64,000 nucleotides of DNA from Methanobacteriota archaeon. GTDB taxonomy: Archaea; Thermoplasmatota; E2; DHVEG-1. The notes beneath the pieces were generated by a model. The model was not told where the DNA came from. It made no database searches and worked only from the letters and a program-made list of their open reading frames with translations. A program made the translations under genes and the position numbers. Below, piece by piece: positions 6,220 to 21,019 of the stretch (position 1 is the stretch's first letter; every line of letters begins with the position of its first letter). Where the stretch lies: positions 416,001 to 480,000 of the forward strand of contig CAVYNH010000007.1 of the NCBI GenBank assembly GCA_963769885.1, written 5' to 3'.

Positions 6220-7581
6220 TTAGAGGACGTGGAAGTACCGCGCGGTCTCCCAGGCGGTGACCTGCATTTGGTACTCCTCCCATTCCGTGCGCTTGATTGC
6301 TATGAAGTTTTCGAAGACGTTGCTGCCTAGGGCGTCCCTGATGAAAGTGCTCTTCTGCATGATCTCCAGGGCATGGCCGAGGCTTTCGGGGAGCTGGCCG
6401 ATGCCGTACGATGCCCGTTCCTTGGGGGTCAGTGCGTAGATGTTACGTTCGACGGGTTCCGGGGCTTTGAGTTTGCGTTTGATACCGTCAAGGCCGGCGG
6501 CGATCATGACGGTGTAGGCGAGGTAGGGGTTGCAGGCGACGTCTGGGTTGCGCAGTTCGATACGCGTCGCCTGTCCACGGTTCGCTGGGATGCGGATGAG
6601 GGAGCTGCGGTTGCGGTTCGCCCAGCAGATATAGGTGGGGGCTTCGTAGCCGGGGACGAGGCGTTTGAAGGAGTTCACGGTCGGGTTGAGGACGGCGCAC
6701 ATCTCCCGGGAATGGGTGAGGAGCCCGGCGAGGAATGAGTACGCAAGCGGGCTGAGTTTGTGCTTGTCTCCTGGGTCATAGAAGGCGTTCTTGCCGGCTG
6801 GCGTGCACATCGAAATGTGGGTATGCATCCCTGAGCCGTTCGTCCCAAAGAGGGGCTTGGGCATGAACGAGGCGTACAAACCATGGCTGTCAGCGATGAT
6901 TTTACTCACGTATTTCAAGGTGATGACGCGCTCCGCTGTCGTGAGTGGGTCGGCGTAGTTGAAGTTGATCTCCTGCTGTCCGGGGGCGACCTCATGGTGC
7001 GTGGTGTAGATCTCGAGGCCGAGCTGCTGCAATGCCATGGCGATGTCCGCCCGGACGGTTTCTGCCAGGTCACGGTGGGAGAGGTCGAAGTAGCCGGCGT
7101 TGTCATGCGGCAGCAAGGTCGGACCGTCGCTGTTTCGCTGGAAGAGGAAGAATTCGCATTCAGAGCCGGTATTGCAGCGGTACCCGAGTTTGTCCGCCTT
7201 TTGCAATATCTGTTGTAGTACGTATCGGACGTCGCCGGGGAAGCGTTGTTTTCCGTCCTGTTCATAGATGTCGCAGCTGATTTTCGCGGTCTTCCGTGGC
7301 TCGATGCTCTCAGGGATGATGCTGAAGCTGGCGGGGATTGGGCGGATGACCTTGTCTGATTCTTCGATGTTGGCACAGCCGATGATGGACGAGGCGTCGA
7401 ACGGGATCCCGTTGTCCAACGCGTCCTTGAGGAGTCCTGAGGGGATGACGAGGTTGCGCGGCATCCCGAGAAGGTCGACGAACTGGAGGCGGATGAACCG
7501 GATGTTCTCATGGGCAACAGTCGATAGGATAGAGTCCGCAGTCCAGAATTCAGCCGATTTCGTCGACGTTACGTTTTTCAT
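6220..7581 (-). CDS. glnA: Glutamine synthetase type I
   Basis: IRFIRLQFVD, ECEFFLF, HHEVAPGQQEINF, GSGMHTHIS, NSFKRLVPGYEAP, NRSSLIRIP, RIELRNPD. Confidence 0.96.
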   Translation of the reverse strand: MKNVTSTKSAEFWTADSILSTVAHENIRFIRLQFVDLLGMPRNLVIPSGLLKDALDNGIPFDASSIIGCANIEESDKVIRPIPASFSIIPESIEPRKTAKISCDIYEQDGKQRFPGDVRYVLQQILQKADKLGYRCNTGSECEFFLFQRNSDGPTLLPHDNAGYFDLSHRDLAETVRADIAMALQQLGLEIYTTHHEVAPGQQEINFNYADPLTTAERVITLKYVSKIIADSHGLYASFMPKPLFGTNGSGMHTHISMCTPAGKNAFYDPGDKHKLSPLAYSFLAGLLTHSREMCAVLNPTVNSFKRLVPGYEAPTYICWANRNRSSLIRIPANRGQATRIELRNPDVACNPYLAYTVMIAAGLDGIKRKLKAPEPVERNIYALTPKERASYGIGQLPESLGHALEIMQKSTFIRDALGSNVFENFIAIKRTEWEEYQMQVTAWETARYFHVL

Positions 7582-7774: not shown

Positions 7775-9160
<1,386 letters not shown>

Positions 9161-9298: not shown

Positions 9299-10621
9299 AT
9301 GGCAACAAAAACTGTGACTGTCCCAAAGGCGCCCAAACCCGAAGGGTTCAACCCTTTCAAAATGGCCCAGCAGCAATTCGACCGCATCGCAGATAAACTC
9401 GGCTTAGACCAACCAACACGGGATCTCCTCCGCGAGCCTCTCCGTGAATATCATTTCTCGATCCCAATCCGAATGGACGACGGTACCATGAAAGTCTTCC
9501 ATGGCTTCCGCGTCCAACACAACGACGCCCGCGGCCCCTGCAAGGGCGGCATCCGCTTCCACCCCCAAGAGACCATCGACACCGTCAAAGCCCTGGCCAT
9601 GTGGATGACCTGGAAATGCTCCGTCGCGGACATACCGCTGGGCGGCGGCAAGGGCGGCGTCATCTGCGACCCGCACAACCTCTCCGAAAAAGAGCAGGAA
9701 CGCATCTGCCGCGGTTGGGTCCGTCAGATTGCTCGCGACATTGGGCCTTACCAAGATGTACCAGCCCCTGACGTCATGACCAGCGGCCAGCACATGATCT
9801 GGATCATGGACGAGTTCCAGACCCTCTCCCACGGGGAGTTCCAACCTGGCGTCATCACCGGCAAGCCCGTCGGGCTCGGCGGCTCCCGAGGCCGGACCGA
9901 GGCGACCGGGTACGGTTTAATCTACATCCTTCGTGAAGTCCTCAAAGAGCTGAAGATGGACGTCACTAAGACCACCGCCTCCGTGCAGGGCTTCGGTAAC
10001 GTCGCCCGCTACGCCGCGGAGCTGTACTCGCAGTACGGCGGTACGGTCTTCTCCGTTTCCTGCTGGGACCAAAACGACGCCACCAGCTACGGCTTCTACA
10101 AGAAAAACGGCATCAACCTCGAGGAGCTCTTGAAAATCACGGACCGCTTTGGCACCATCGACAAGGATAAGGCGCAGAAACTCGGCTATCAGATCACCCC
10201 CGGCGACGACTGGCTCACCCATGACGTCGACATCCTCATCCCCGCGGCACTTGAAAACTCCATCACCGCGGAGAACGTCGGCAAGATCAGCCCCAAAGTC
10301 AAAATCGTCATCTGCGGCGCGAACGGCCCCGTCACCCCCGAAGCAGAGGACGCCCTCGACAAACGCGGCGTCACCGTCATCCCCGACTTCCTCGCCAACG
10401 CCGGCGGCGTCGTCTGCAGCTACTTCGAACAAGTCCAAAACAACCAAAACTACTACTGGACCAAGGAAGAAGTCCTCGGCAAACTCGACAACAAGATGAC
10501 CGACGCCTTCTACCACGTCTGGGACCTCTCCCAGCGCAAAAAAGTCCGCATCAGCGACGCAGCCTACATGATCGCCATAAACCGTGTCGCCGAAGCCTGC
10601 AAGATGCGCGGCTGGGTCTAA
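9299..10621 (+). CDS. Second glutamate dehydrogenase (Glu/Leu/Phe/Val dehydrogenase family)
   Basis: HNDARGPCKGGIRFHP, MTWK, GGGKGG, DVPAPDV, ITGKPVGLGGS.GRTEATGYG, QGFGNVA, PDFLANAGGV. Confidence 0.94.
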   Translation: MATKTVTVPKAPKPEGFNPFKMAQQQFDRIADKLGLDQPTRDLLREPLREYHFSIPIRMDDGTMKVFHGFRVQHNDARGPCKGGIRFHPQETIDTVKALAMWMTWKCSVADIPLGGGKGGVICDPHNLSEKEQERICRGWVRQIARDIGPYQDVPAPDVMTSGQHMIWIMDEFQTLSHGEFQPGVITGKPVGLGGSRGRTEATGYGLIYILREVLKELKMDVTKTTASVQGFGNVARYAAELYSQYGGTVFSVSCWDQNDATSYGFYKKNGINLEELLKITDRFGTIDKDKAQKLGYQITPGDDWLTHDVDILIPAALENSITAENVGKISPKVKIVICGANGPVTPEAEDALDKRGVTVIPDFLANAGGVVCSYFEQVQNNQNYYWTKEEVLGKLDNKMTDAFYHVWDLSQRKKVRISDAAYMIAINRVAEACKMRGWV

Positions 10622-10634
10622 AACAACCGCGACT

Positions 10635-13600
10635 ATGCTGTCCCGTGACCGAGAACAACAAATCCGTACCACTATCCACGACATCACCGGGGTCACCCCC
10701 CCGGAACCCCCACAAGAACCAGGCTCACGGGAACCGGATCACCGCTCCTACACGGTGACCCGCATCCTCCTTTTTTCATCCTCCTACGACTACTTCCTCC
10801 TCACCGAAGAAAACAGACTCGACAGCCTCCTCGCCGAAACACCCCCCTACCGCTACTACCACGACCAACCCCCCAAGATCGCCCACGTTGAAACCACCAC
10901 CGACCTCATTGAACACCTCAAAAAACGCCGCTGCGACCTCCTCATCCTCTTCAACCCAGCCAAAGACCTCGACGCCCTCACCCTCACCCAAACCATCCAC
11001 ACCATCTCCAACGAAACCAAGATCATGGTCCTCGCCAACAACACCGCTGACCTCGCCGCCCTCCAACACCGCGACCACGCCCACACCATCGATGGCCTCT
11101 TCACCTGGAACGGCGATGGCAAAATCATCCTCACCATGATCGCCTACCTCGAGGACAAACACAACGCCACCACTCTCACCCCGACCGAGGACTACGACGC
11201 CCTCCTCCTCGTCGAAGACTCCATCCAAGCCTACTCCGAATACCTCACCGAAGCCTACGACGAAATCCGCAGACACCACCACGCCATCACCCCCGACGAC
11301 GCCACGAACGACGAAAACCTCGACACCTGGCGCAAACGACCCCTCGTCCTCCACGCCACCACCCTCGCCGACGCCCAGACCCTCATCACCCGGCACCAAG
11401 CTCACCTCATCGGCGTCATCACCGACAACCACCTCCCCGGCTCCCCCCCACACCACGACGACGGCATCCTCCTCGCCACCCAACTCCGGACCACCGCCCC
11501 CGGCATCCCCATCCTCCTGCAGTCCTCAGACCCCATCAAAACCAAGATCCCACCCAACATCACAACCATCCAAAAACACGACCCACACCTCACCACCACC
11601 CTCCGCCACTTCCTCCAAGACTGCCTCGGCCCCACCAACCTGCCTACTACCAACGACCACAATCCCATCCGCACCATGCGCGAATTCGAAGACGCCGTCG
11701 TCACCCTCCCCCCCGCCGCCCTGCGAAGTATCTCCAAGAATCACCAACTCTCCCGCTGGCTCCGCGCCCGCGGCGACCGCACCCTCGCCGACCGCATCAC
11801 CACCATCGAAAACGAGGACCTCGACGACGACGCCTTCAAACAACGCCTCGTCGACACCATCGAAGAACACCGCTACGCCAGCAACCAAATCCAAATCACC
11901 AAATTCCTGCGAGAAAACCAAGGCCCCGCCAGACAGATCAGCCGTATCGGAGACGGCGCCCTCGGCGGCAAAGCACGCGGCCTCGCCTTCCTCTCCAAAC
12001 TCCTCACCACCTACCTCACCGACGAGATGACCCCGGGCATCCACATCACCCTGCCCCGCAGCATCGTCCTCACCACAGACATCTTCGACGCCTTCATCAC
12101 CCAAAACCACCTCCTCACCCCCGAGCTCTTCACCCTCCCCGACGAACGCATCACCGCCCGCTTCATGGACGCCAGCCTCCCTCCTACCATCCTCGGCGAC
12201 CTCAGAGCTTTCATCCGCGGCAGCCGCAAACCCCTCATCATCCGCAGCAGCGGCATGCTCGAAGACAGCCTCATGCAGCCCTTCGCCGGCATCTACGCCT
12301 CCATCCTCCTCCCCAACGAATCCTGGGAAACCGACTTCCGCTTCCAAGACGTCTGCAACGCCGTTAAATACGTCTACAGCTCAACCTACAGCCAACGCGC
12401 CCGCACCTACATCCGCAACACCCCCAAAAACATCCGCGACGAAAAAATGGCAGTCCTCATCCAAGAAGTCGTCGGCGAACGCCACGGCCCCTACTTCTAC
12501 CCCGCCCTCTCCGGCGTCGCCAAATCCTACAACTACTACCCCACAGGCGGCTGCACCCACGAAGACGGCATCGTCTACCTCGCCGTCGGCCTCGGCAAAG
12601 CCATCGTCGACGGCGGCAGCAGCTTCTGCTTCTGCCCCCAACACCCCCGCGTCCCCCTCTTCGGCACCCCCAAAGACTTCATCAAATACAGCCAGACCCA
12701 CTTCTACGCCCTCACCCTCCAATCCATCTACCGCATCGTCGAAAAAAACGAAGACACCACCCTCAAAAGCCTCGACATCACCATCGCCCGCGACGAAGGC
12801 CTCCTCAACCAGTTCGCCTCCACCTACCTCCCCCGCGACGACACCCTCTACCCCGGCCTCTCCCCCGACGGCATCATGGTCCTCGACTTCGGCCCCATCC
12901 TCTCCTACGACGCTCTCCCCCTCGCCAACGCCCTCCGACTCCTCCTGCGCATCAGCGAACTCGCCCTCGGCTACCCCGTCGAAATCGAATTCGCCCTCAA
13001 CCTCCCCACCACCTCAGACGCCCCTGCGGAGCTCGTCATCCTCCAAGTCCGCAACATGCGGCCCAAAGGAAAACAAACAGAAGTCAACCTCCACGACTAT
13101 GATCAAAACCTCGACCTCTGCTTCAGCGCCAACGCCCTCGGCAACGGCATCATCGACGGCCTCACCGACATCGTCTATATCACCCCCGAAGGTTTCGACC
13201 TCGCCAACTCCCAGCGCGCCGTCGGCCAGCTCCGCACCATTAACGCCAAACTCATGGATCAGGCACGGCCCTACATTCTCATCGGCCCAGGCCGCTGGGG
13301 CTCCGCAGACCCTTGGCTCGGCATCCCTGTCCAATGGAGCGACATCGCTGGCGCCCGAGTTATCCTCGAGACCCCCGTCAAAGCCAGGATCATCGAGCCA
13401 TCCCAAGGCTCCCACTTCTTCCACGACATGATGGCAGGCCAGGTCGGCTACCTCATGACCAAAGACGGCCCCGCCAACATCCGCTACAACTGGCTCGACT
13501 CCCTCCCAGTCCTAGAGACCACCCAGGACGTCAGGTACGTCCGGTCACCGGAGCCGCTCATGGTCCTCATCGACGGCAAGACTGGGAAGGCAGCCCTGCG

Positions 13601-13670
13601 CAAACAGACAACCCTTAAAAACCCGCAACACCATGCAGACCCACAGGAGCCAACTGAGGGGACCATCTAG
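10635..13670 (+). CDS. Receiver-domain-containing PEP synthase/PPDK-type ATP-grasp protein, no pyruvate-binding barrel; function unknown
   Basis: N-terminal receiver-like segments (LLLVEDS...GVITD...PILLQSS); PPDK_N motifs (GGKARGL, IIRSSGMLED, FAGIY, KMAVLIQEVVG, EIEFA, ILQVR); C-terminal GPGRWGS and SQGSHFF. Start moved to ATG 10635. Confidence 0.85.
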   Translation: MLSRDREQQIRTTIHDITGVTPPEPPQEPGSREPDHRSYTVTRILLFSSSYDYFLLTEENRLDSLLAETPPYRYYHDQPPKIAHVETTTDLIEHLKKRRCDLLILFNPAKDLDALTLTQTIHTISNETKIMVLANNTADLAALQHRDHAHTIDGLFTWNGDGKIILTMIAYLEDKHNATTLTPTEDYDALLLVEDSIQAYSEYLTEAYDEIRRHHHAITPDDATNDENLDTWRKRPLVLHATTLADAQTLITRHQAHLIGVITDNHLPGSPPHHDDGILLATQLRTTAPGIPILLQSSDPIKTKIPPNITTIQKHDPHLTTTLRHFLQDCLGPTNLPTTNDHNPIRTMREFEDAVVTLPPAALRSISKNHQLSRWLRARGDRTLADRITTIENEDLDDDAFKQRLVDTIEEHRYASNQIQITKFLRENQGPARQISRIGDGALGGKARGLAFLSKLLTTYLTDEMTPGIHITLPRSIVLTTDIFDAFITQNHLLTPELFTLPDERITARFMDASLPPTILGDLRAFIRGSRKPLIIRSSGMLEDSLMQPFAGIYASILLPNESWETDFRFQDVCNAVKYVYSSTYSQRARTYIRNTPKNIRDEKMAVLIQEVVGERHGPYFYPALSGVAKSYNYYPTGGCTHEDGIVYLAVGLGKAIVDGGSSFCFCPQHPRVPLFGTPKDFIKYSQTHFYALTLQSIYRIVEKNEDTTLKSLDITIARDEGLLNQFASTYLPRDDTLYPGLSPDGIMVLDFGPILSYDALPLANALRLLLRISELALGYPVEIEFALNLPTTSDAPAELVILQVRNMRPKGKQTEVNLHDYDQNLDLCFSANALGNGIIDGLTDIVYITPEGFDLANSQRAVGQLRTINAKLMDQARPYILIGPGRWGSADPWLGIPVQWSDIAGARVILETPVKARIIEPSQGSHFFHDMMAGQVGYLMTKDGPANIRYNWLDSLPVLETTQDVRYVRSPEPLMVLIDGKTGKAALRKQTTLKNPQHHADPQEPTEGTI

Positions 13671-13676
13671 GAGGCC

Positions 13677-16600
13677 ATGGCTATCGCAGAAAAAACCGAG
13701 TTCCAAAAAGCGACCCAACACGAACCCAGCATGTCCTCGTACCACACCATCAACGAGCTGAAAGAACGCGTCAAAGAACTCAACTGCCTTTACGGCCTCA
13801 CCAAGATCGTCAAGAACACTAAATACACCGTGGACGAGGCCATCCAGAACATCATCGCCCTCATCCCGCCCGCCTGGCAGTACCCAGATATCACTTGCGC
13901 CCGCATCTCCTTCGAAGGCGGCAAAGAATACGTCACCAAGAACTTCCGAGAATCCAAATGGAGCCAAATCAGCAACATCATCGCCGACGAGAAAAAAATC
14001 GGCGTCCTCGAAGTCTACTACACCGAGGAACGCCCCATGCAACATGAAGGCCCCTTCCTCAAAGAAGAACGCCGCCTTATCGACGCCATCGCCACCCTCA
14101 TCGGCCAATTCTTCGAAGAACGCCGCGTCAAAGAAGAACTCAGGAAAAAGAAGATCGCCCCCTACGTCAAACCCGTCTCCACCAAAAAAGCGGGCGAGAC
14201 CCCCACCCAGAAGAAACAAGACTGGGAAGTCATCATCGACCTCCTCATCAAGACCGACCCCCGGACCCTCCTGCGGATCACCCGCAAGATGACCTACTAC
14301 CTCTACCGCCACAACAACGAGAAGATCACGGACCTGCAGAACCAGATCACCCCTATCGACAGCACATCCACGGCCCGCGGCATCAACATGCCCAACCCCC
14401 GCACCGACCTGCAAAGCCTCGTCACCTTCCAAAAACACGTCTTTGACATCGCCAAGGAAAGCATCCCCTCCCAGGTCATCTCCGAACTCTTCCAGGACTG
14501 GCTGCGCTCAGACAAGGCTCGACCGCTCCTCCTCACCTCCCAGAAGACCGGTGTCCCCCTCAGCGAGATCCGCGAAGAACTCACCCGCTTCATGGAAAAA
14601 ACCGACATTGAAACCTCCCTCTCCGAAGAAGACACCATCGGCATCAAGACCGCGATGATCCGACGGTTCGTCACCGACCGACTCGAATACGTCAACGTCG
14701 CCAAGTCCTACTTCGAACTCGAAGACTTCGTCCAACTCCTCTCCTGCATCATCGGCCCCGCCCAAGGCGCCGGCAAACTCGGCGGCAAAACCGGGGGCGT
14801 CATCCTCGCAGAAAAAATCCTGCGCACCGAAATGAAAAACGACGCCCTCCTCAAAGACATCGACTTCCCCCGCAGCTGGTACATCACTTCAGACACCGTC
14901 GCTGCCTTCGTCCATCACAACGACCTCGACGACGTCTTCCACATCAAATACCTCGACCCCGGCGAGATCCGCCAAGAACAACCCTTCCTCGAACAAATCT
15001 TCAAAAACGCCTTCTTCCCTTACGAAATCGTCGAAGGACTCCGCGGCATCATCACCGCGGTCAAAGACAAGCCCATCATCGTCCGATCCTCAAGCCTCCT
15101 CGAAGACAGCTACGGCGCCGCCTTCTCCGGGAAATACAAAAGCCTCTTCGTCCCCAACCTCGGCTCCGAAGAAGAACGCCTCAAAGCCCTCATGGACGCC
15201 ATCGCCGAAGTCTACGCCTCTACCTTCGGCCCTGACCCCATCGAATACCGCCGCGAACGCGGCCTCCTCGACTTCAACGAAGAAATGGGCATCCTCGTCC
15301 AAGAGGTCGTCGGCACCCGCATCGGACCCTACTACATGCCCTCTTACGCCGGCGTCGCCTTCAGCCGCAACGAATTCCGCTGGTCGCCCCGCATCCGCCG
15401 CGAAGACGGCATGATCCGCCTCGTCCCAGGCCTCGGCACCCGCGCCGTCGATCGCGTCGGCAATGACTACCCCATCCTCATCTCGCCGTTCCGCCCAGAG
15501 CTCCAAGTCAACACCCTCATCGAAGAACGCATCAAATACTCACCACGCTACATGGACGTCATCAACATGCAGACGGGGCTCATCGAAACCGTCGAAATCG
15601 AAGACCTCCTCAGGAACTACGGCGACCAAATCCCCCTCTTCGACAACATCGTCTCCGTCCACGAACAAGGACGTCTCATCGCCCCCAACGTCATATGCGA
15701 CCTCGCCACAGCAGACCTCGTCGTCACCTTCCAAAATCTTTTCGATAAGAGCGACTTCCTCCCGAAAATGAAACGGATCCTCTCCATCCTTGAAGAGAAG
15801 ATTGGCTCACCGGTCGACATCGAATTCGCCTGCGACGGCCACAGGTTCTACTTCCTCCAATGCCGACCTCAAAGTCAATCCCGCGGCATGGAACGCGTCC
15901 CCGTCCCCAAGGACATCCCCCGAGAACAGAAGCTCTTCACCGCCCGCCGCTTCATCACCACCGGCCAGATTGAAAACATCGAGTACATCGTGTACGTCAA
16001 CCCTGAAGCGTACGGTGCCCTTGAAAGCCGAGAAAAAATGCTGCGAATCGCCCGTATCGTCGGCGACTTAAACAACAAGCTGCCGCGGCGGAAATTCATT
16101 CTCATGGGCCCAGGCCGCTGGGGCAGCCGTGGAGACATTAAGCTTGGTGTCCCCGTCCGCTATGCGGACATTAACAACACCTCGCTCCTGGTTGAGATCG
16201 CAAAGGAAAAAGGCGATTATACTCCCGAGCTTTCGTTCGGCACCCACTTCTTCCAGGACCTCGTCGAAGCCAACATCCGCTACCTCCCGTTATACCCCGA
16301 TCAGCCGGATATCATCTTCAACGAAGACATCCTCATGGCTGCCGAGAATCACATGGCTGAGATTATCAATAGCGGCGCTCAGAATGAGACGACGATTCGT
16401 CTGATCAAGGTCTCTGATATTGTCCCTGGTGGCTCGCTGCGCGTCATTATGGACGGTGATGCGGGTGAAGCCCTCGGGTATTTCAAACCCCCTGACCATT
16501 GGGACTGGCGGGTCCAGAAAGTGAAGCAGATTGCAAAATCCCTTGACCCGGAGCTGTACGGCATCCATGCAATGTACGTCATTGGCAGTACCAAGGACGG

Positions 16601-16868
16601 CGGCGCGGGGCCGGCAAGCGACATTGATTTGCTTGTGCATTTCCGAGGCACTGAGGAGCAGAAGGAAAAACTCCTGGAGTGGTTCGCTTCCTGGGGCAAG
16701 AAGTTTGACGATGAAAACAAGGAGCGTACCGGAATCAGGACCGGGGGGCTGCTTGATGTCCATATCATCACCGACGAGGATATTAAGAACAAGACGTCCT
16801 GGGCAACGCATCTGACGTCCCCATACTTGACTGCGTTGAAAGTGCCGTTGGAGAAAGAGCAACTCTAG
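13677..16868 (+). CDS. GAF-like sensor + PPDK-type ATP-grasp + His-motif domain + C-terminal nucleotidyltransferase protein; function unknown
   Basis: N-terminal ERVKELNCLY...PPAWQYP...EGPFLKEER sensor segment; GKLGGK, IVRSSSLLED, FSGKY, MGILVQEVVG, DIEFA, FLQCRP; GPGRWGS, SFGTHFF; C-terminal IGSTKDGGAGPASDIDLLV (GS...DxD). Confidence 0.85.
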   Translation: MAIAEKTEFQKATQHEPSMSSYHTINELKERVKELNCLYGLTKIVKNTKYTVDEAIQNIIALIPPAWQYPDITCARISFEGGKEYVTKNFRESKWSQISNIIADEKKIGVLEVYYTEERPMQHEGPFLKEERRLIDAIATLIGQFFEERRVKEELRKKKIAPYVKPVSTKKAGETPTQKKQDWEVIIDLLIKTDPRTLLRITRKMTYYLYRHNNEKITDLQNQITPIDSTSTARGINMPNPRTDLQSLVTFQKHVFDIAKESIPSQVISELFQDWLRSDKARPLLLTSQKTGVPLSEIREELTRFMEKTDIETSLSEEDTIGIKTAMIRRFVTDRLEYVNVAKSYFELEDFVQLLSCIIGPAQGAGKLGGKTGGVILAEKILRTEMKNDALLKDIDFPRSWYITSDTVAAFVHHNDLDDVFHIKYLDPGEIRQEQPFLEQIFKNAFFPYEIVEGLRGIITAVKDKPIIVRSSSLLEDSYGAAFSGKYKSLFVPNLGSEEERLKALMDAIAEVYASTFGPDPIEYRRERGLLDFNEEMGILVQEVVGTRIGPYYMPSYAGVAFSRNEFRWSPRIRREDGMIRLVPGLGTRAVDRVGNDYPILISPFRPELQVNTLIEERIKYSPRYMDVINMQTGLIETVEIEDLLRNYGDQIPLFDNIVSVHEQGRLIAPNVICDLATADLVVTFQNLFDKSDFLPKMKRILSILEEKIGSPVDIEFACDGHRFYFLQCRPQSQSRGMERVPVPKDIPREQKLFTARRFITTGQIENIEYIVYVNPEAYGALESREKMLRIARIVGDLNNKLPRRKFILMGPGRWGSRGDIKLGVPVRYADINNTSLLVEIAKEKGDYTPELSFGTHFFQDLVEANIRYLPLYPDQPDIIFNEDILMAAENHMAEIINSGAQNETTIRLIKVSDIVPGGSLRVIMDGDAGEALGYFKPPDHWDWRVQKVKQIAKSLDPELYGIHAMYVIGSTKDGGAGPASDIDLLVHFRGTEEQKEKLLEWFASWGKKFDDENKERTGIRTGGLLDVHIITDEDIKNKTSWATHLTSPYLTALKVPLEKEQL

Positions 16869-17698
16869 CCGATCAGCTGACGAGACGCCTGAGTGAGGCA
16901 CGCTGGGTCGAAGGTGATGAGAGACAGCTTCGGTTTGTCGGTTGATCCGTTGAAGCAGACGGTGTTCCCTATCCTGATTCTCCAGTGTTTGGTGAGTCGA
17001 GTCGCCTCATGCACATGGCCATGCATCGTGAGGAGCGGCTGATGGCGTTCGATGAACCGCCTGACTGCGATGCTGCCGACGTGGACATCCAGGGGCGCGA
17101 AATCAACTTTCTTTCCATCTAAGGCGGCCCGGTCAAGCGCCGTCTGGTAGGGCGGTGAATGGAAGAGAACTATGGTTTTTTTCATGGGAAGGTTTTCCGC
17201 GAGTTTTTCGAGATCCTCTGTGATGTACCCATGGAGGATGTGGTCCACAGAAAAGGGGACGGTATGTGTGCCTTCGATGGGGGGGATGGTTCCGACGTCG
17301 TCGTGGGAGGATACGTCGTAGCGTTCCCAGTCTTTCAGGAGGAAGGGAGTCGGTGGCACATAGGCGTACCCGGCGACTGTGTAGGGGGGGAGTTGCGTGG
17401 ACCGTTCATGGAGGTAGGTGAGGATGCCGTCGTGGTCTGCTGCTTGAAAGGCGGCTTCATGAATTCGGGGGTTGTCGTTTCCAAGGATGAGGAAGAATCG
17501 GGTGCGTTTTGCGTGGGCGCGGATGGGTGTGAGCAGGTAGGTGGTGATGAAGTCGTGAATCGGGAGTTGGCTGTGGTGGGTGGGAAGGAGGTCGCCTCCG
17601 ATGAAGACGGCGTCGGGGTGGTCGGTCTCAATGGCGTGGAAGAGGGCCGCGTATCGGGTGATGCTGCCGTGAAGATCTGAGGTGAAGAAGCAGTGCAC
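16865..17698 (-). CDS. Calcineurin-like metallophosphoesterase (Icc-related)
   Basis: SDLHG, GGDL, GNDN, FHSPP, HGHVHE motifs. Likely GTG start at 17698 with a GAGGT RBS; the ORF-track extension to 18283 is spurious. Confidence 0.88.
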   Translation of the reverse strand: MHCFFTSDLHGSITRYAALFHAIETDHPDAVFIGGDLLPTHHSQLPIHDFITTYLLTPIRAHAKRTRFFLILGNDNPRIHEAAFQAADHDGILTYLHERSTQLPPYTVAGYAYVPPTPFLLKDWERYDVSSHDDVGTIPPIEGTHTVPFSVDHILHGYITEDLEKLAENLPMKKTIVLFHSPPYQTALDRAALDGKKVDFAPLDVHVGSIAVRRFIERHQPLLTMHGHVHEATRLTKHWRIRIGNTVCFNGSTDKPKLSLITFDPACLTQASRQLIG

Positions 17699-18031
17699 AG
17701 CGGAAACCTCTGGGGATAGTGGTATCAACCCTGGGCTGTTAATAAAGATTTGGCAGAGGTGAGGCTGCGTTTTTTTGTGTGTACTGGTTCTTGATAGGGT
17801 GTGGGATGGATTTGCATATTTTTTTATTGCGAGATGGGGGTTAGTTCTACTAGTTGAGGCTCGTTTTTGCTTTTGTGGTTGGGGAATGAGATTTATAAAG
17901 CACGAGGCGTTATCACGCTTGTGGGGGCTTAGCGCGTGGAAACCCGGATACAGCGTGCCGAACACGTACCGAGGAGGATAGTGAGGTTCGTTGCCGGGAT
18001 GGACAGAGTCGCCTTTGCTTCCTAGGAAGGG

Positions 18032-18598
18032 ATTGTTCTGCTCTACTTCCTTCATGGCTACAACTCTTCCCCGAGCGGGGAGAAAGCGCTTCTTTTTCAA
18101 AAAACCTTGCAGGCTATCCCGCTTGCCTACCGGAATGGTCCGCCGGAGGATCTTAATGTGGGTGATGCGCTTCGGCGTGTGGCGGATGCCATTCGTGACG
18201 ATAAGAAGGTCGGCTTGATTGGGTTGTCGCTTGGTGGGTACCTCGCGGCGACGACGGCGCTGGATAACGTGCGGGTGACGCACGTCGCGTTGCTTAACCC
18301 GTCGATCATCCCCCCGGGGACAGATTTGTCTGGGGAGACGACGATGCCGCAGCGTATCTTGCGTGCGATGATTAACCCGAACCTGTTTTCAAGGGTTCTG
18401 CCTGCGCGGCTCATCATCTTGCGGGGGACGCAGGATACGGTGGTGCCTGATGCGTGGGTGCAGCCGTTTGCGCGGGCGCAGCATGCGAAGATTTTTTGTT
18501 TCAATGATGATCATCGGTTCACGCATTCCATGCATAAGTTCCCGGAGATCCTTGCGCATTTTTTTGCGGAAACGCCTCGGGTGACTGACCAGCAGTAA
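18032..18598 (+). CDS. YqiA-like alpha/beta hydrolase (esterase), probably with a non-canonical start (ATT 18032 or CTG 18038)
   Basis: In-frame LYFLHGYNSSP oxyanion motif lies upstream of the first TTG; GLSLGG nucleophile elbow; D(TVVP) and DH(RF) catalytic residues. Confidence 0.8.
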   Translation: MVLLYFLHGYNSSPSGEKALLFQKTLQAIPLAYRNGPPEDLNVGDALRRVADAIRDDKKVGLIGLSLGGYLAATTALDNVRVTHVALLNPSIIPPGTDLSGETTMPQRILRAMINPNLFSRVLPARLIILRGTQDTVVPDAWVQPFARAQHAKIFCFNDDHRFTHSMHKFPEILAHFFAETPRVTDQQ

Positions 18599-18806
18599 TC
18601 AGCGGCGGGTGTTGGAGTCGCGAGAGTTTTTTTAAGATTACCACACCGAATCTTCGTATTGATTCTTCTCTACTCGTATTTTATGGTTGAGAGCAACGAA
18701 TACGTTTCCTTAAAGAAAAATAGTTTCCTTAGAGATGATTCGCCCAAAAGCTTTAAAGAGGGCAAAAATTACCCTTGTTCAGCATCCTCACGGGGCAGGA
18801 ATGGTC

Positions 18807-19637
18807 ATGTTTGAGATTCTTGAGAAGAAGATCCTCTCGCCGAATGAGAAGTTGATGAAGATCCGGGCGCCGCTCATCGCCCGGAAGGCGCAGGCCGGCC
18901 AGTTCGTCATTCTCCGCATCAACGAGCAGGGAGAACGGATCCCGCTGACCATCGCAGACTACGATAGAGACGACGGCACCATCACCATCATCTTCCTCGA
19001 AGTCGGCAAATCCACGAAACAGCTAGGAAGGCTTGAAGTGGGAGACTCGCTCTTGAACCTCGCCGGGCCCCTCGGCATGCCCTCCGACATCAAAAACTAC
19101 GGCACCGTCGTCCTCATCGGCGGCGGCGTCGGCATCGCCCCCCTCTATCCCATCGTCCGCGCGATGAAAGCCGCCGGCAACCACGTCATCTCCATCCTCG
19201 GCGCACGATCAAAGGACCTCATCATCCTCGAAGAAGAGATCTCCGAATATAGCGACGAGTTCTACATCACCACCGACGATGGATCCAAAGGGTCAAAAGG
19301 CTTCGTCAGCGACCTCCTCGACAAAATCATCCAACAGAAGGAAAAGAAGATCGATCTGGTCATGGCCATCGGCCCCGTCATCATGATGAAGGTCGTCTCC
19401 GACCTCACCAAGAAATACAACATCCGGACCCTGGTCAGTCTGAACCCGATCATGGTAGACGGCACTGGGATGTGCGGCGGCTGCCGCGTCTCGGTCGGCG
19501 GCAAGACGAAGTTCGCCTGTGTCGACGGCCCCGAATTCGACGGCCACCTCGTCGACTACCAGAACCTCATGCTTAGAAACCAACGATTCATCGGTCATGA
19601 GAAAGACGCCTGCAAGCTCCTGGAGGAGACGAAATGA
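18807..19637 (+). CDS. nfnA: Electron-bifurcating transhydrogenase small subunit NfnA / sulfide dehydrogenase SudB
   Basis: AGQFVILR, GERIPLTI, GPLG, GGGVGIAP, IGPVIMM, MVDGTGMCGGCRV...CVDGPEFDG. Confidence 0.92.
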   Translation: MFEILEKKILSPNEKLMKIRAPLIARKAQAGQFVILRINEQGERIPLTIADYDRDDGTITIIFLEVGKSTKQLGRLEVGDSLLNLAGPLGMPSDIKNYGTVVLIGGGVGIAPLYPIVRAMKAAGNHVISILGARSKDLIILEEEISEYSDEFYITTDDGSKGSKGFVSDLLDKIIQQKEKKIDLVMAIGPVIMMKVVSDLTKKYNIRTLVSLNPIMVDGTGMCGGCRVSVGGKTKFACVDGPEFDGHLVDYQNLMLRNQRFIGHEKDACKLLEETK

Positions 19638-21019
19638 GCGTGCAGAAGACGAAGCATCCGATGCCGCAGCAGCGGCCGGAGGAACGGATCCATAACTTCC
19701 GGGAAGTCCCACTCGGATACGAACGAGATGTCGCAATCGCAGAGGCAAAACGCTGCCTGCAATGCAAGAACCGCCCGTGCATGAAAGGCTGCCCCGTCGA
19801 AATCGACATCCCCGGGTTCCTCCACTGCATCACGCTCGGTAAGTTCGAGAAGGCCGCGGAAATCATCCGGGCCAAGAACAACCTGCCGGCGGTCTCTGGC
19901 CGGGTTTGCCCGTATGAGGATCAATGCGAAGGAGAATGCACATTGAAGAAGGCAGGGGAGCCGGTCGGCATCGGGCGGCTCGAGAGGTTCATTGCGGATT
20001 ATGAGCGGACGAAGGGGGCCGTGGTGCCGCCGCGGCCGCCATCGAACGGGAGACGGGTTGCGGTCGTCGGCTCAGGGCCGGCAGGATTGACGTGCGCGGG
20101 AGATCTCGCAAAGATGGGCTACGAAGTTGTCGTCTTTGAGGCACTGCATGCCCCAGGCGGGGTCCTTATGTACGGCATCCCGGAGTTCCGGCTGCCGAAG
20201 GCTATCGTCCATTCCGAGGTCGATTATATCAAGAAGTTGGGCGTCCAGATCGACTATGATATGGTCGTCGGCAAGTCCATCACCGTCCCGGAACTACTGC
20301 AGGAGTTCGATGCGGTGTTCCTGGGAACCGGGGCTGGATTGCCGAACTGGTTGAACATCCCTGGTGAGAATCTGGATGGGGTATATTCAGCGAACGAGTT
20401 TCTGACGCGGGTGAATATGATGAGGGCATACGAGTTCCCTCGGTCGGATACCCCGGTGAAGATCGGCCGGATCGTGGCGACATTTGGCGCAGGCAACGTC
20501 GCAATGGACTGCGCGCGGACCGCGCTACGGCTAGGAGCAGAAAAGTCCTATATTCTGTACCGGCGGACAGAGGCGGAGATGCCGGCGCGGGTGGAGGAGA
20601 TTGAGCACGCGAAAGAAGAAGGCGTAGTCTTTAGGCTCTTGACCAACCCTGTCCGATTCATTGGGACGGAGAAAGGACTCCTCAAATCAGTCGAGTTTTT
20701 GAAAATGAAGCTCGGGGAGCCTGATGAGTCTGGTCGGCGTCGTCCCGTGCCGATTCCCGGCTCGGAGGAGATTTTGGATATCGACACCGCGGTGGTGGCG
20801 ATCGGGCAGAGTCCGAACCCGCTCGTCCCGCGATCCCTACCTGGTCTGAAGCTAGGGAAGCACGGGAATATCATCACGGATGAGGATGGCCGGACGTCAA
20901 TCCCTGGCGTGTTCGCGGGTGGTGACATCGCGACCGGGGCGGCGACCGTGATCCTGGCGATGGGGGCGGGAAAGAAGGCCGCCCGAGCAATCGACCAGTA
21001 CATCAAGGAGAAAAAATAG
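19634..21019 (+). CDS. nfnB: NfnB / SudA (glutamate synthase small-subunit homolog)
   Basis: EAKRCLQC..PC..GCPV, GRVCPYEDQCE, GSGPAGL, YGIPEFRLPK, GAGNVAMD, FAGGDIATGAATVILAMGAG; ATGA overlap with nfnA. Confidence 0.93.
   Translation: MSVQKTKHPMPQQRPEERIHNFREVPLGYERDVAIAEAKRCLQCKNRPCMKGCPVEIDIPGFLHCITLGKFEKAAEIIRAKNNLPAVSGRVCPYEDQCEGECTLKKAGEPVGIGRLERFIADYERTKGAVVPPRPPSNGRRVAVVGSGPAGLTCAGDLAKMGYEVVVFEALHAPGGVLMYGIPEFRLPKAIVHSEVDYIKKLGVQIDYDMVVGKSITVPELLQEFDAVFLGTGAGLPNWLNIPGENLDGVYSANEFLTRVNMMRAYEFPRSDTPVKIGRIVATFGAGNVAMDCARTALRLGAEKSYILYRRTEAEMPARVEEIEHAKEEGVVFRLLTNPVRFIGTEKGLLKSVEFLKMKLGEPDESGRRRPVPIPGSEEILDIDTAVVAIGQSPNPLVPRSLPGLKLGKHGNIITDEDGRTSIPGVFAGGDIATGAATVILAMGAGKKAARAIDQYIKEKK

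Follow-up and report, generated by a model that had tools for sequence, protein, structure and literature searches.

Glutamate dehydrogenase (GDH) connects carbon metabolism with nitrogen metabolism, and in prokaryotes its control is ascribed mostly to transcription and allostery. GlnE and GlnD belong to the Pol-beta nucleotidyltransferase (NTase) superfamily. The minimal (MNT-type) members of that fold include antitoxins that act as protein AMPylases, transferring AMP from ATP onto a tyrosine of the partner protein (PMC7641770, PMC11586414), and fused MNT forms exist as well (PMC13000451). VadK, a truncated PPDK, autophosphorylates on a histidine and binds the metabolic enzymes that it regulates (PMC13400623). 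We herein describe a protein in which relatives of these two kinds of enzyme are joined: "paralog B", the 1063-residue product of a gene at positions 13677 to 16868 of a 64,000-nucleotide stretch (the window) from contig CAVYNH010000007.1 of a Thermoplasmatota archaeon, which lies behind a GDH gene and ends in an MNT-type NTase domain. We suggest, at a probability of about 45% and by analogy with the MNT antitoxins, that this intact NTase in a GDH-linked sensor enzyme nucleotidylylates a protein of the GDH/dikinase assembly, with the neighbouring GDH ("GDH2") as the favoured candidate. A literature search found no paper on this GDH-linked dikinase/NTase family, and no holder was listed when RNA runs were searched for the gene.

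An NTase signature in the C-terminal ~120 residues had been noted in a first-pass annotation made from the DNA letters, and it was confirmed by profile searches. The annotated range (16495-16868) runs from residue 940 to the stop codon. PF01909 (NTP_transf_2), with a gathering cut-off of 21 bits, matched residues 948-1000 at 30.6 bits when the full protein was searched and at 34.1 bits when the tail was searched alone, and PF18765 (Polbeta) reached 26.2 bits, just under its cut-off of 26.9. The motif string reported there corresponds to residues 967-988 (nucleotides 16575-16640) and the later LDVH to residues 1026-1029 (nucleotides 16752-16763), and a conserved T1032-D1033-x-D1035 follows D1027. 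The reported fusion to a dikinase-like protein holds too, as the PPDK_N domain (PF01326, 183.6 bits) lies in the same open reading frame (ORF). The parts of the domain are given below with their conservation in alignment A1, which has 62 rows, including 21 representatives of 50%-identity clusters, and an identity floor of 28%:

16494 to 16865, + strand: minimal (MNT-type) Pol-beta NTase, residues 940-1063, from PF01909 and AlphaFold2 (AF2) fold matches
16584 to 16589, + strand: hG[GS] motif, G970-S971 (G in 60/62 rows, S in 61/62)
16620 to 16628, + strand: metal-binding DxD, D982-I-D984 (D982 in 61/62, D984 in 60/62)
16755 to 16757, + strand: third catalytic carboxylate, D1027, within LDVH (D in 61/62, plus one E)

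The fold was assessed on an AF2 model of residues 740-1063 (predicted local distance difference test, pLDDT, 88.9; predicted template modelling score, pTM, 0.73). Model residues 200-321 matched best the HEPN-MNT antitoxin 8xeh_E (Z 8.4, root-mean-square deviation 2.9, 101 aligned residues), followed by 1wot (Z 8.0), 2rff (Z 7.4) and 1no5 (Z 6.7), and the antibiotic-type enzymes ANT(4'), AAD(9), ANT(3'')(9) and LinB ranked after the MNT folds at Z ~6. Foldseek gave a ranking that agrees with the Z-score search, with E 8e-4 and probability 1.00 to 8xeh_E. The tail thus has a predicted NTase fold, and its DxD is conserved among orthologs, so that neither of the two computational checks named in the first-pass annotation as able to refute it did so. 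Residues ~940-1063 are a real and intact MNT-type Pol-beta NTase domain.

Conservation extends well through the family. A word-indexed homolog search with residues 740-1063 of the window protein as the query gave over 7600 proteins. Identity among the top 120 is 63-90%; these proteins are ~1040-1090 residues long, share PPDK_N and NTP_transf_2, and come from Thermoplasmatota metagenome-assembled genomes under the names "PEP/pyruvate-binding domain-containing" or "nucleotidyltransferase domain-containing". Among 113 close orthologs, the motifs IGS, SDID and LD.H..TD.DI, which contain the catalytic G970, S971, D982, D984 and D1027, show conservation of 95% or more, and the catalytic positions stay at or above 90% in the 62 rows of A1. 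Furthermore, a scan of one genome per species recovered at least 589 genomes with the swivelling His-like plus NTase module, and in the best 80 loci, on which the locus counts below are based and which are spread over Thermoplasmatota and upwards of 15 bacterial phyla, the GS...DxD and the third aspartate are kept in 80/80. Since the catalytic residues are fully conserved, we infer that the NTase tail is a catalytically competent enzyme domain.

Two neighbours upstream of paralog B on the same strand form with it what we call the GDH cassette:

9299 to 10621, + strand: cassette GDH (GDH2), Thermococcus/Pyrococcus type, from Pfam, with 1euz and 1gtm as the closest PDB entries
10584 to 13670, + strand: "paralog A", with a REC-like N-terminus, PPDK_N and the same His-like domain as paralog B, without an NTase, from Pfam and BLASTP

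Neighbours were counted by tblastn of the window proteins against the recovered loci, 59 of which were informative for GDH linkage and 69 for the phosphoesterase described further below. Of the 59 loci, 56 have a GDH2-type gene upstream of paralog B in the same orientation; paralog A stands between GDH and paralog B in 48 of these 56, and GDH directly precedes paralog B in the other 8. Three metagenomic loci likewise show the order GDH, PPDK_N protein, PPDK_N-NTase protein. Compared between archaea and bacteria, the linked GDHs share 62-76% identity; by similarity, they are ordinary Thermococcus/Pyrococcus-type hexameric enzymes with intact catalytic motifs. Seven loci carry a minimal cassette of GDH and NTase-bearing paralog B, with neither paralog A nor phosphoesterase, so that GDH and paralog B itself are the only partners always encoded beside the NTase. 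The source genome has only two copies of the PPDK_N/His-like core, namely paralogs A and B, whose cores are 29% identical over 531 residues (BLASTP). Fusions of A and B exist as single proteins of 1500-1650 residues, one of them behind GDH, and their occurrence in one polypeptide argues that the two paralogs act together.

The family is not restricted to archaea; most carriers are bacterial. Among the best 80 loci, the bacterial carriers belong to Acidobacteriota, Aminicenantes, Planctomycetota, Zixibacteria, Ignavibacteria, Bacteroidota, Cloacimonadota, Krumholzibacteria, Gemmatimonadota, Syntrophomonadaceae, Spirochaetes, relatives of Fibrobacterota, and Lentisphaerae; in the last of these, the cultured Oligosphaera ethanolica DSM 24202 has the simplest form, with only GDH and the NTase-bearing paralog B. 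In a phylum sample of 301 genomes, 40 carry a full NTase-bearing copy. Orthologs without the NTase are found as well, several of them among the representatives of the 50%-identity clusters; they are ~910-920 residues long, end just past the His-like domain, and align with the window protein along their entire length at 41-44% identity. In two cases the gene comes immediately after GDH, and paralog A, the phosphoesterase and an NTase gene are all missing from the vicinity. Because the NTase-less orthologs remain GDH-linked, the GDH-tied core function needs no NTase. On a quick tree of the core, nine NTase-less proteins fall into one clade with those that carry the NTase, and the presence of the NTase changes about six times, at least three of these changes being forced by well-supported branches. 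The NTase is therefore an optional module that was lost or gained several times, and it looks like a regulatory or output add-on. A stand-alone NTase, P0266 (153 residues), was considered as a split form and set aside: it occurs on contigs of 1-2 kb, is preceded by a 96-residue open end and followed by a phosphoesterase, and in all likelihood represents a piece of a complete gene.

The same dispensability could be taken to mean that the domain is a non-catalytic module derived from an MNT protein, either a nucleotide-binding sensor or a dimerisation element. MNT domains do dimerise in the HEPN-MNT complexes matched in the fold search, and the representative P0126 has lost its GS motif. We nevertheless consider this improbable, since three carboxylates together with the GS motif, kept in every one of the 80 loci and in at least 90% of the rows of the diverse alignment, are typical of active NTases and not of pseudo-enzymes.

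The target originally put forward for the domain was glutamine synthetase (GS) or GDH, and of this pair the GDH part fits the gene order while the GS part does not stand. The idea was that of a convergent GlnE analogue that adenylylates GS on Tyr382. GlnA (6220-7581, - strand) is indeed encoded divergently ~6 kb upstream in the window and, as had been pointed out, keeps this tyrosine in PVERNIYAL (codon 6436-6438); GlnA is also near the cassette in loci L005 and L018. PII (GlnB/GlnK, PF00543) was not found in the 92%-complete source genome, while a control search found it in 13/14 genomes, nor was it found in any of 35 genomes of the source genome's family, so that an unconventional control of nitrogen metabolism is conceivable. 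Against this, GlnA lies within 10 kb of the cassette in 1/80 related loci, whereas GDH2 is linked in 56/59. The GS is of the GSI-alpha class by similarity, with E 1e-133 to 1e-145 to archaeal and Firmicute enzymes; the GSI-beta enzymes from E. coli, Salmonella and M. tuberculosis, which can be adenylylated, match at E 1e-70. The Tyr382 motif is common to Firmicute and archaeal GSI-alpha structures, with Phe in one, and it is hence not diagnostic of adenylylation, in line with the caveat already attached to the proposal that the tyrosine also occurs in GS that is not adenylylated. The GSI-alpha class is not known to be controlled by adenylylation. A Pfam search of the NTase tail with E values up to 10 gave no match to the GlnE (PF03710) or GlnD families, and the fold is closest to MNT and ANT proteins. 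The GS adenylyltransferase reading is thus not supported and appears very improbable, and the NTase more likely helps to control the cassette GDH than GS. As a side observation within the phylum, PII is present in 34/36 genomes of a family that lacks the cassette (f8), and the cassette families f1 and f21 are without it; the majority of the families without PII have no cassette either, and the pattern was given no weight.

The rest of paralog B places the NTase at the end of a multidomain enzyme, in the order GAF, helical domain, PPDK_N ATP-grasp, swivelling His-like domain and MNT-type NTase:

13677 to 16868, + strand: paralog B, whole gene, 1063 residues, from the ORF, its translation and Pfam
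13749 to 14156, + strand: GAF sensor, residues ~25-160, from the AF2 model and fold matches
14220 to 14750, + strand: all-helical domain, residues ~182-358, family unassigned, from the secondary structure of the model
14778 to 15905, + strand: PPDK_N ATP-grasp (AMP/ATP-binding), residues 368-743 (PF01326, E 7.7e-54, 183.6 bits)
15924 to 16493, + strand: swivelling beta/beta/alpha domain resembling phospho-His carriers, residues 750-939, from fold matches, shared with paralog A
16107 to 16127, + strand: GPGRWGS motif in the His-like domain
16236 to 16253, + strand: FGTHFF motif, with His857 at 16245-16247

The N-terminal region was modelled (AF2, residues 1-365) at pLDDT 84.9, and its predicted GAF domain matched the GAF domains of DosP (Z 13.4), 3cit (Z 12.9), NifA (Z 11.9) and PtsP (3trc, Z 11.1); the Pfam GAF family was matched by 11/69 orthologs. 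The helical domain belongs to no Pfam family, and a protein-atlas search with residues 175-362 gave no informative cluster. No conserved Rx4-6H motif was seen in the N-terminal alignment, and Pfam found no HEPN family match in paralogs A and B, both GDHs or the phosphoesterase. The full-length protein scored far under every cut-off of the PEPS, PPDK and Rph models. Pfam found no C-terminal phosphoenolpyruvate (PEP)/pyruvate TIM barrel (PF02896); the NTase ends the protein.

The model of the swivelling domain matched enzyme I (EI, 2wqd, Z 5.8), residues 755-867 of Rph (5hv1, Z 5.7), the C-terminal part of pyruvate kinase from Bacillus (2e28, Z 5.5) and the PPDK carrier domain (2fm4 and 1vbg, Z 5.1). 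RraA-like and putative-cyclase proteins also resemble it (model residues 1-200), and these share the same swivelling beta/beta/alpha fold. Pfam gave no match to the domain, including the PEP-utiliser family PF00391, and a profile of it (A5) found chance-level matches only (E 0.1 or above) among PDB sequences. A Thr-His dipeptide stands at a helix start (T856 in 58/62 and H857 in 56/62 rows of A1). From the modelled fold, the position after the ATP-grasp and this conserved dipeptide, a phospho-His-carrier identity is plausible.

The Thr-His loop also bears on a second possibility, namely that the swivelling domain visits the NTase as a third catalytic station or that the NTase is an enzyme acting on a small molecule. 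The NTase takes the place that the PEP/pyruvate barrel has in PEP synthase and PPDK, in the order ATP-grasp, His domain, C-terminal domain; it could nucleotidylylate Thr856 or His857 and so gate phosphotransfer, or it could produce or use up a small molecule that contains a nucleotide. A Thr next to the catalytic His is also what PDRP phosphorylates in PPDK. The conservation of the dipeptide and the pTM of 0.73 of the two-domain model, which suggests a defined packing of the His-like domain and the NTase, are in keeping with such a station; for a small-molecule enzyme, it can be said that the closest sequence families besides MNT are the ANT enzymes and that no acceptor-binding protein domain was recognised. 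The loop is independent of the NTase, however, since NTase-less orthologs and paralog A keep both the Thr-His loop and the GDH linkage, and the helical C-terminal domain of the ANT enzymes is missing in paralog B. We regard this possibility as a serious rival, if a rather unlikely one.

A protein of the GDH/dikinase assembly is favoured as the target on account of the MNT fold, the conserved catalytic residues and the seven-locus minimal set. In such a scheme, the GAF domain would read a metabolite, and the ATP-grasp would load phosphate onto the conserved Thr-His loop in the manner of dikinases and VadK. With an NTP as the donor, which would be ATP if MntA and ANT are a guide, the NTase would then nucleotidylylate a hydroxyl group of some assembly protein; GDH2 comes first as the candidate, and the alternative would be the swivel loop of paralog B itself or of its paralog. 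The GDH node would thereby come under a second kind of covalent control, beside the His-phosphorelay. An N-terminal GAF domain and a His-carrier-like fold behind the ATP-grasp fit a signal-transducing enzyme, and a regulatory add-on role of the NTase fits the GDH-linked orthologs that do without it as well as the roughly six changes on the tree.

Several points weigh against nucleotidylylation of a protein in the assembly. Gene linkage identifies no substrate. When the linked GDHs were compared with those of two NTase-less cassettes, no GDH2 residue was tied to the presence of the NTase save D311E and an aromatic swap, and no residue of the paralog B core was found to be conserved only with the NTase present. 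Minimal NTases normally need a second domain that binds the acceptor, such as HEPN or the helical domain of ANT, and none was recognised beside this NTase by Pfam. The phospho-His assignment leans on middling Z scores (5.1-5.8) and on position, without sequence-profile support. The convergent metallophosphoesterase might have been the eraser of an NTase mark, and this was rejected because its presence tracks paralog A and not the NTase, so that nothing points to a simple writer/eraser pair. Tyr385 of GDH was likewise tried as a target and rejected: both GDHs that go with NTase-less proteins have Phe there, and the swap from NYFW to NFYW keeps a Tyr and occurs also in the NTase-bearing loci L031 and L088. 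A complex prediction of GDH2 (alignment A3) with residues 740-1063 (A1) scored 0.00 in a run without controls and is no evidence either way.

Downstream of paralog B, the cassette is bordered by one further gene:

16865 to 17698, - strand: metallophosphoesterase, convergent, from Pfam Metallophos

It was found within 2.6 kb downstream in 50/69 loci, convergent in 45, and is a frequent, not obligatory, cassette member. It is present in 40/47 loci with paralog A and in 0/7 without it, although the loci of both groups all carry the NTase; the count ignores phylogeny. The longest ORF for it (16865-18283, - strand) would give 472 residues from a GTG; homologs have ~274-290 residues, corresponding to 16865-17698, the Pfam match spans only residues 200-426 of the long ORF, and the true start is probably internal. 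The start of paralog A also has two candidates. Its longest ORF begins at a GTG at 10584, overlaps the end of GDH2 (10621) by 38 nucleotides and has a low-complexity stretch of ~50 residues at the N-terminus, and an alternative ATG at 10635 gives a 1011-residue product after a gap of 13 nucleotides.

Other features of the neighbourhood may be recorded here. After the cassette, window positions 18735-21019 (+ strand) encode an NfnAB/GltD-like pair, with a DHODB-type FAD/NAD/Fe-S subunit and a Fer4_20/Pyr_redox_2 subunit; the pair also follows the cassette in L003, L005 and L011, stands upstream of GDH in L031 and lies on the opposite strand in L023, and it may link the cassette to the NAD(P)H/ferredoxin balance. 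GDH of the other type (GdhA-like, encoded in the window at 7823-9160) is accompanied by neighbours of its own in L003 (4-5530), L021, L022, L054 and L074, which are a receiver-type PPDK_N protein of ~1009 residues with a weak DUF5752 match and a 352-residue protein of no family; the pairing of GDH with a dikinase-like protein therefore occurs in both GDH types. SelO is a known family of protein AMPylases, and a SelO-family protein (L010, 2347-3831, - strand) lies ~2.4 kb upstream of GDH in a bacterial locus with a fused A, B and NTase, possibly by coincidence. The window also shows an unusual strand asymmetry: genes on the + strand (10-16 kb) have a GC skew of -0.3 to -0.4 and an AT skew of +0.2 to +0.3, the signs are reversed for genes on the - strand (1-6 kb), and the sense strands are thus C- and A-rich.

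If GDH2 were nucleotidylylated, the cassette would do for GDH what GlnE does for GS, in Thermoplasmatota and in over 15 phyla of bacteria, and the NTase would be the first minimal MNT enzyme outside toxin-antitoxin and resistance contexts that provides the output of a dikinase-like signalling enzyme. The conserved cassette, present in 589 or more species genomes, couples a GDH of its own to ATP-driven sensor enzymes, one of them with an intact domain of the protein-AMPylase type, and this points to a post-translational control of GDH that has not been studied. The full form of this idea, a dedicated and widespread machine for the covalent control of GDH in which a GAF/ATP-grasp/phospho-His pair and the MNT NTase act on the GDH hexamer, we consider unlikely as a whole. 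The question of GDH control is directly testable, as the cultured Oligosphaera ethanolica carries the simplest form.

Among known systems, the MntA/MNT antitoxins of type VII HEPN-MNT modules (8xeh, 7ae9, 7bxo; 1wot, 2rff, 1no5) share with paralog B an NTase fold of ~100-120 residues with GS...DxD...D. They differ in that the NTase of paralog B is fused to a 940-residue sensor/ATP-grasp enzyme and linked to GDH, that identity is 12-19%, and that the cassette has no HEPN partner or domain. ANT(9), ANT(3'')/AadA and ANT(4') are the closest sequence matches (NCBIfam E 3e-5 to 1e-3; PDB 7uy4, E 0.03), and their N-terminal NTase lobe superposes at Z 6.1-6.5; on the other hand, their helical substrate-binding domain of ~130 residues has no counterpart in paralog B, which scores far under the family cut-offs. 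With GlnE and GlnD, the likeness is one of superfamily and of concept, a nitrogen-node enzyme controlled by nucleotidylylation, whereas there is no family match, no GSI-beta GS and no PII found, and the linkage is to GDH and not to GS.

The dikinase-like part compares with PEPS, PPDK, Rph and VadK (Rv1127c of M. tuberculosis), in which a PPDK_N ATP-grasp is followed by a phospho-His carrier, as is plausible from the predicted fold for paralog B; these lack an NTase, and paralog B lacks a PEP-utiliser Pfam match and the TIM barrel. The GAF domain of PtsP (EI-Ntr) responds to glutamine and 2-oxoglutarate. Like PtsP, paralog B has a predicted N-terminal GAF domain (3trc, Z 11.1), joined to what may be a His-phosphocarrier enzyme, and a tie to nitrogen and carbon status. 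Paralog B would take its phosphate from ATP through an ATP-grasp rather than from PEP through the EI barrel as PtsP does, and the NTase and GDH link are absent in PtsP.

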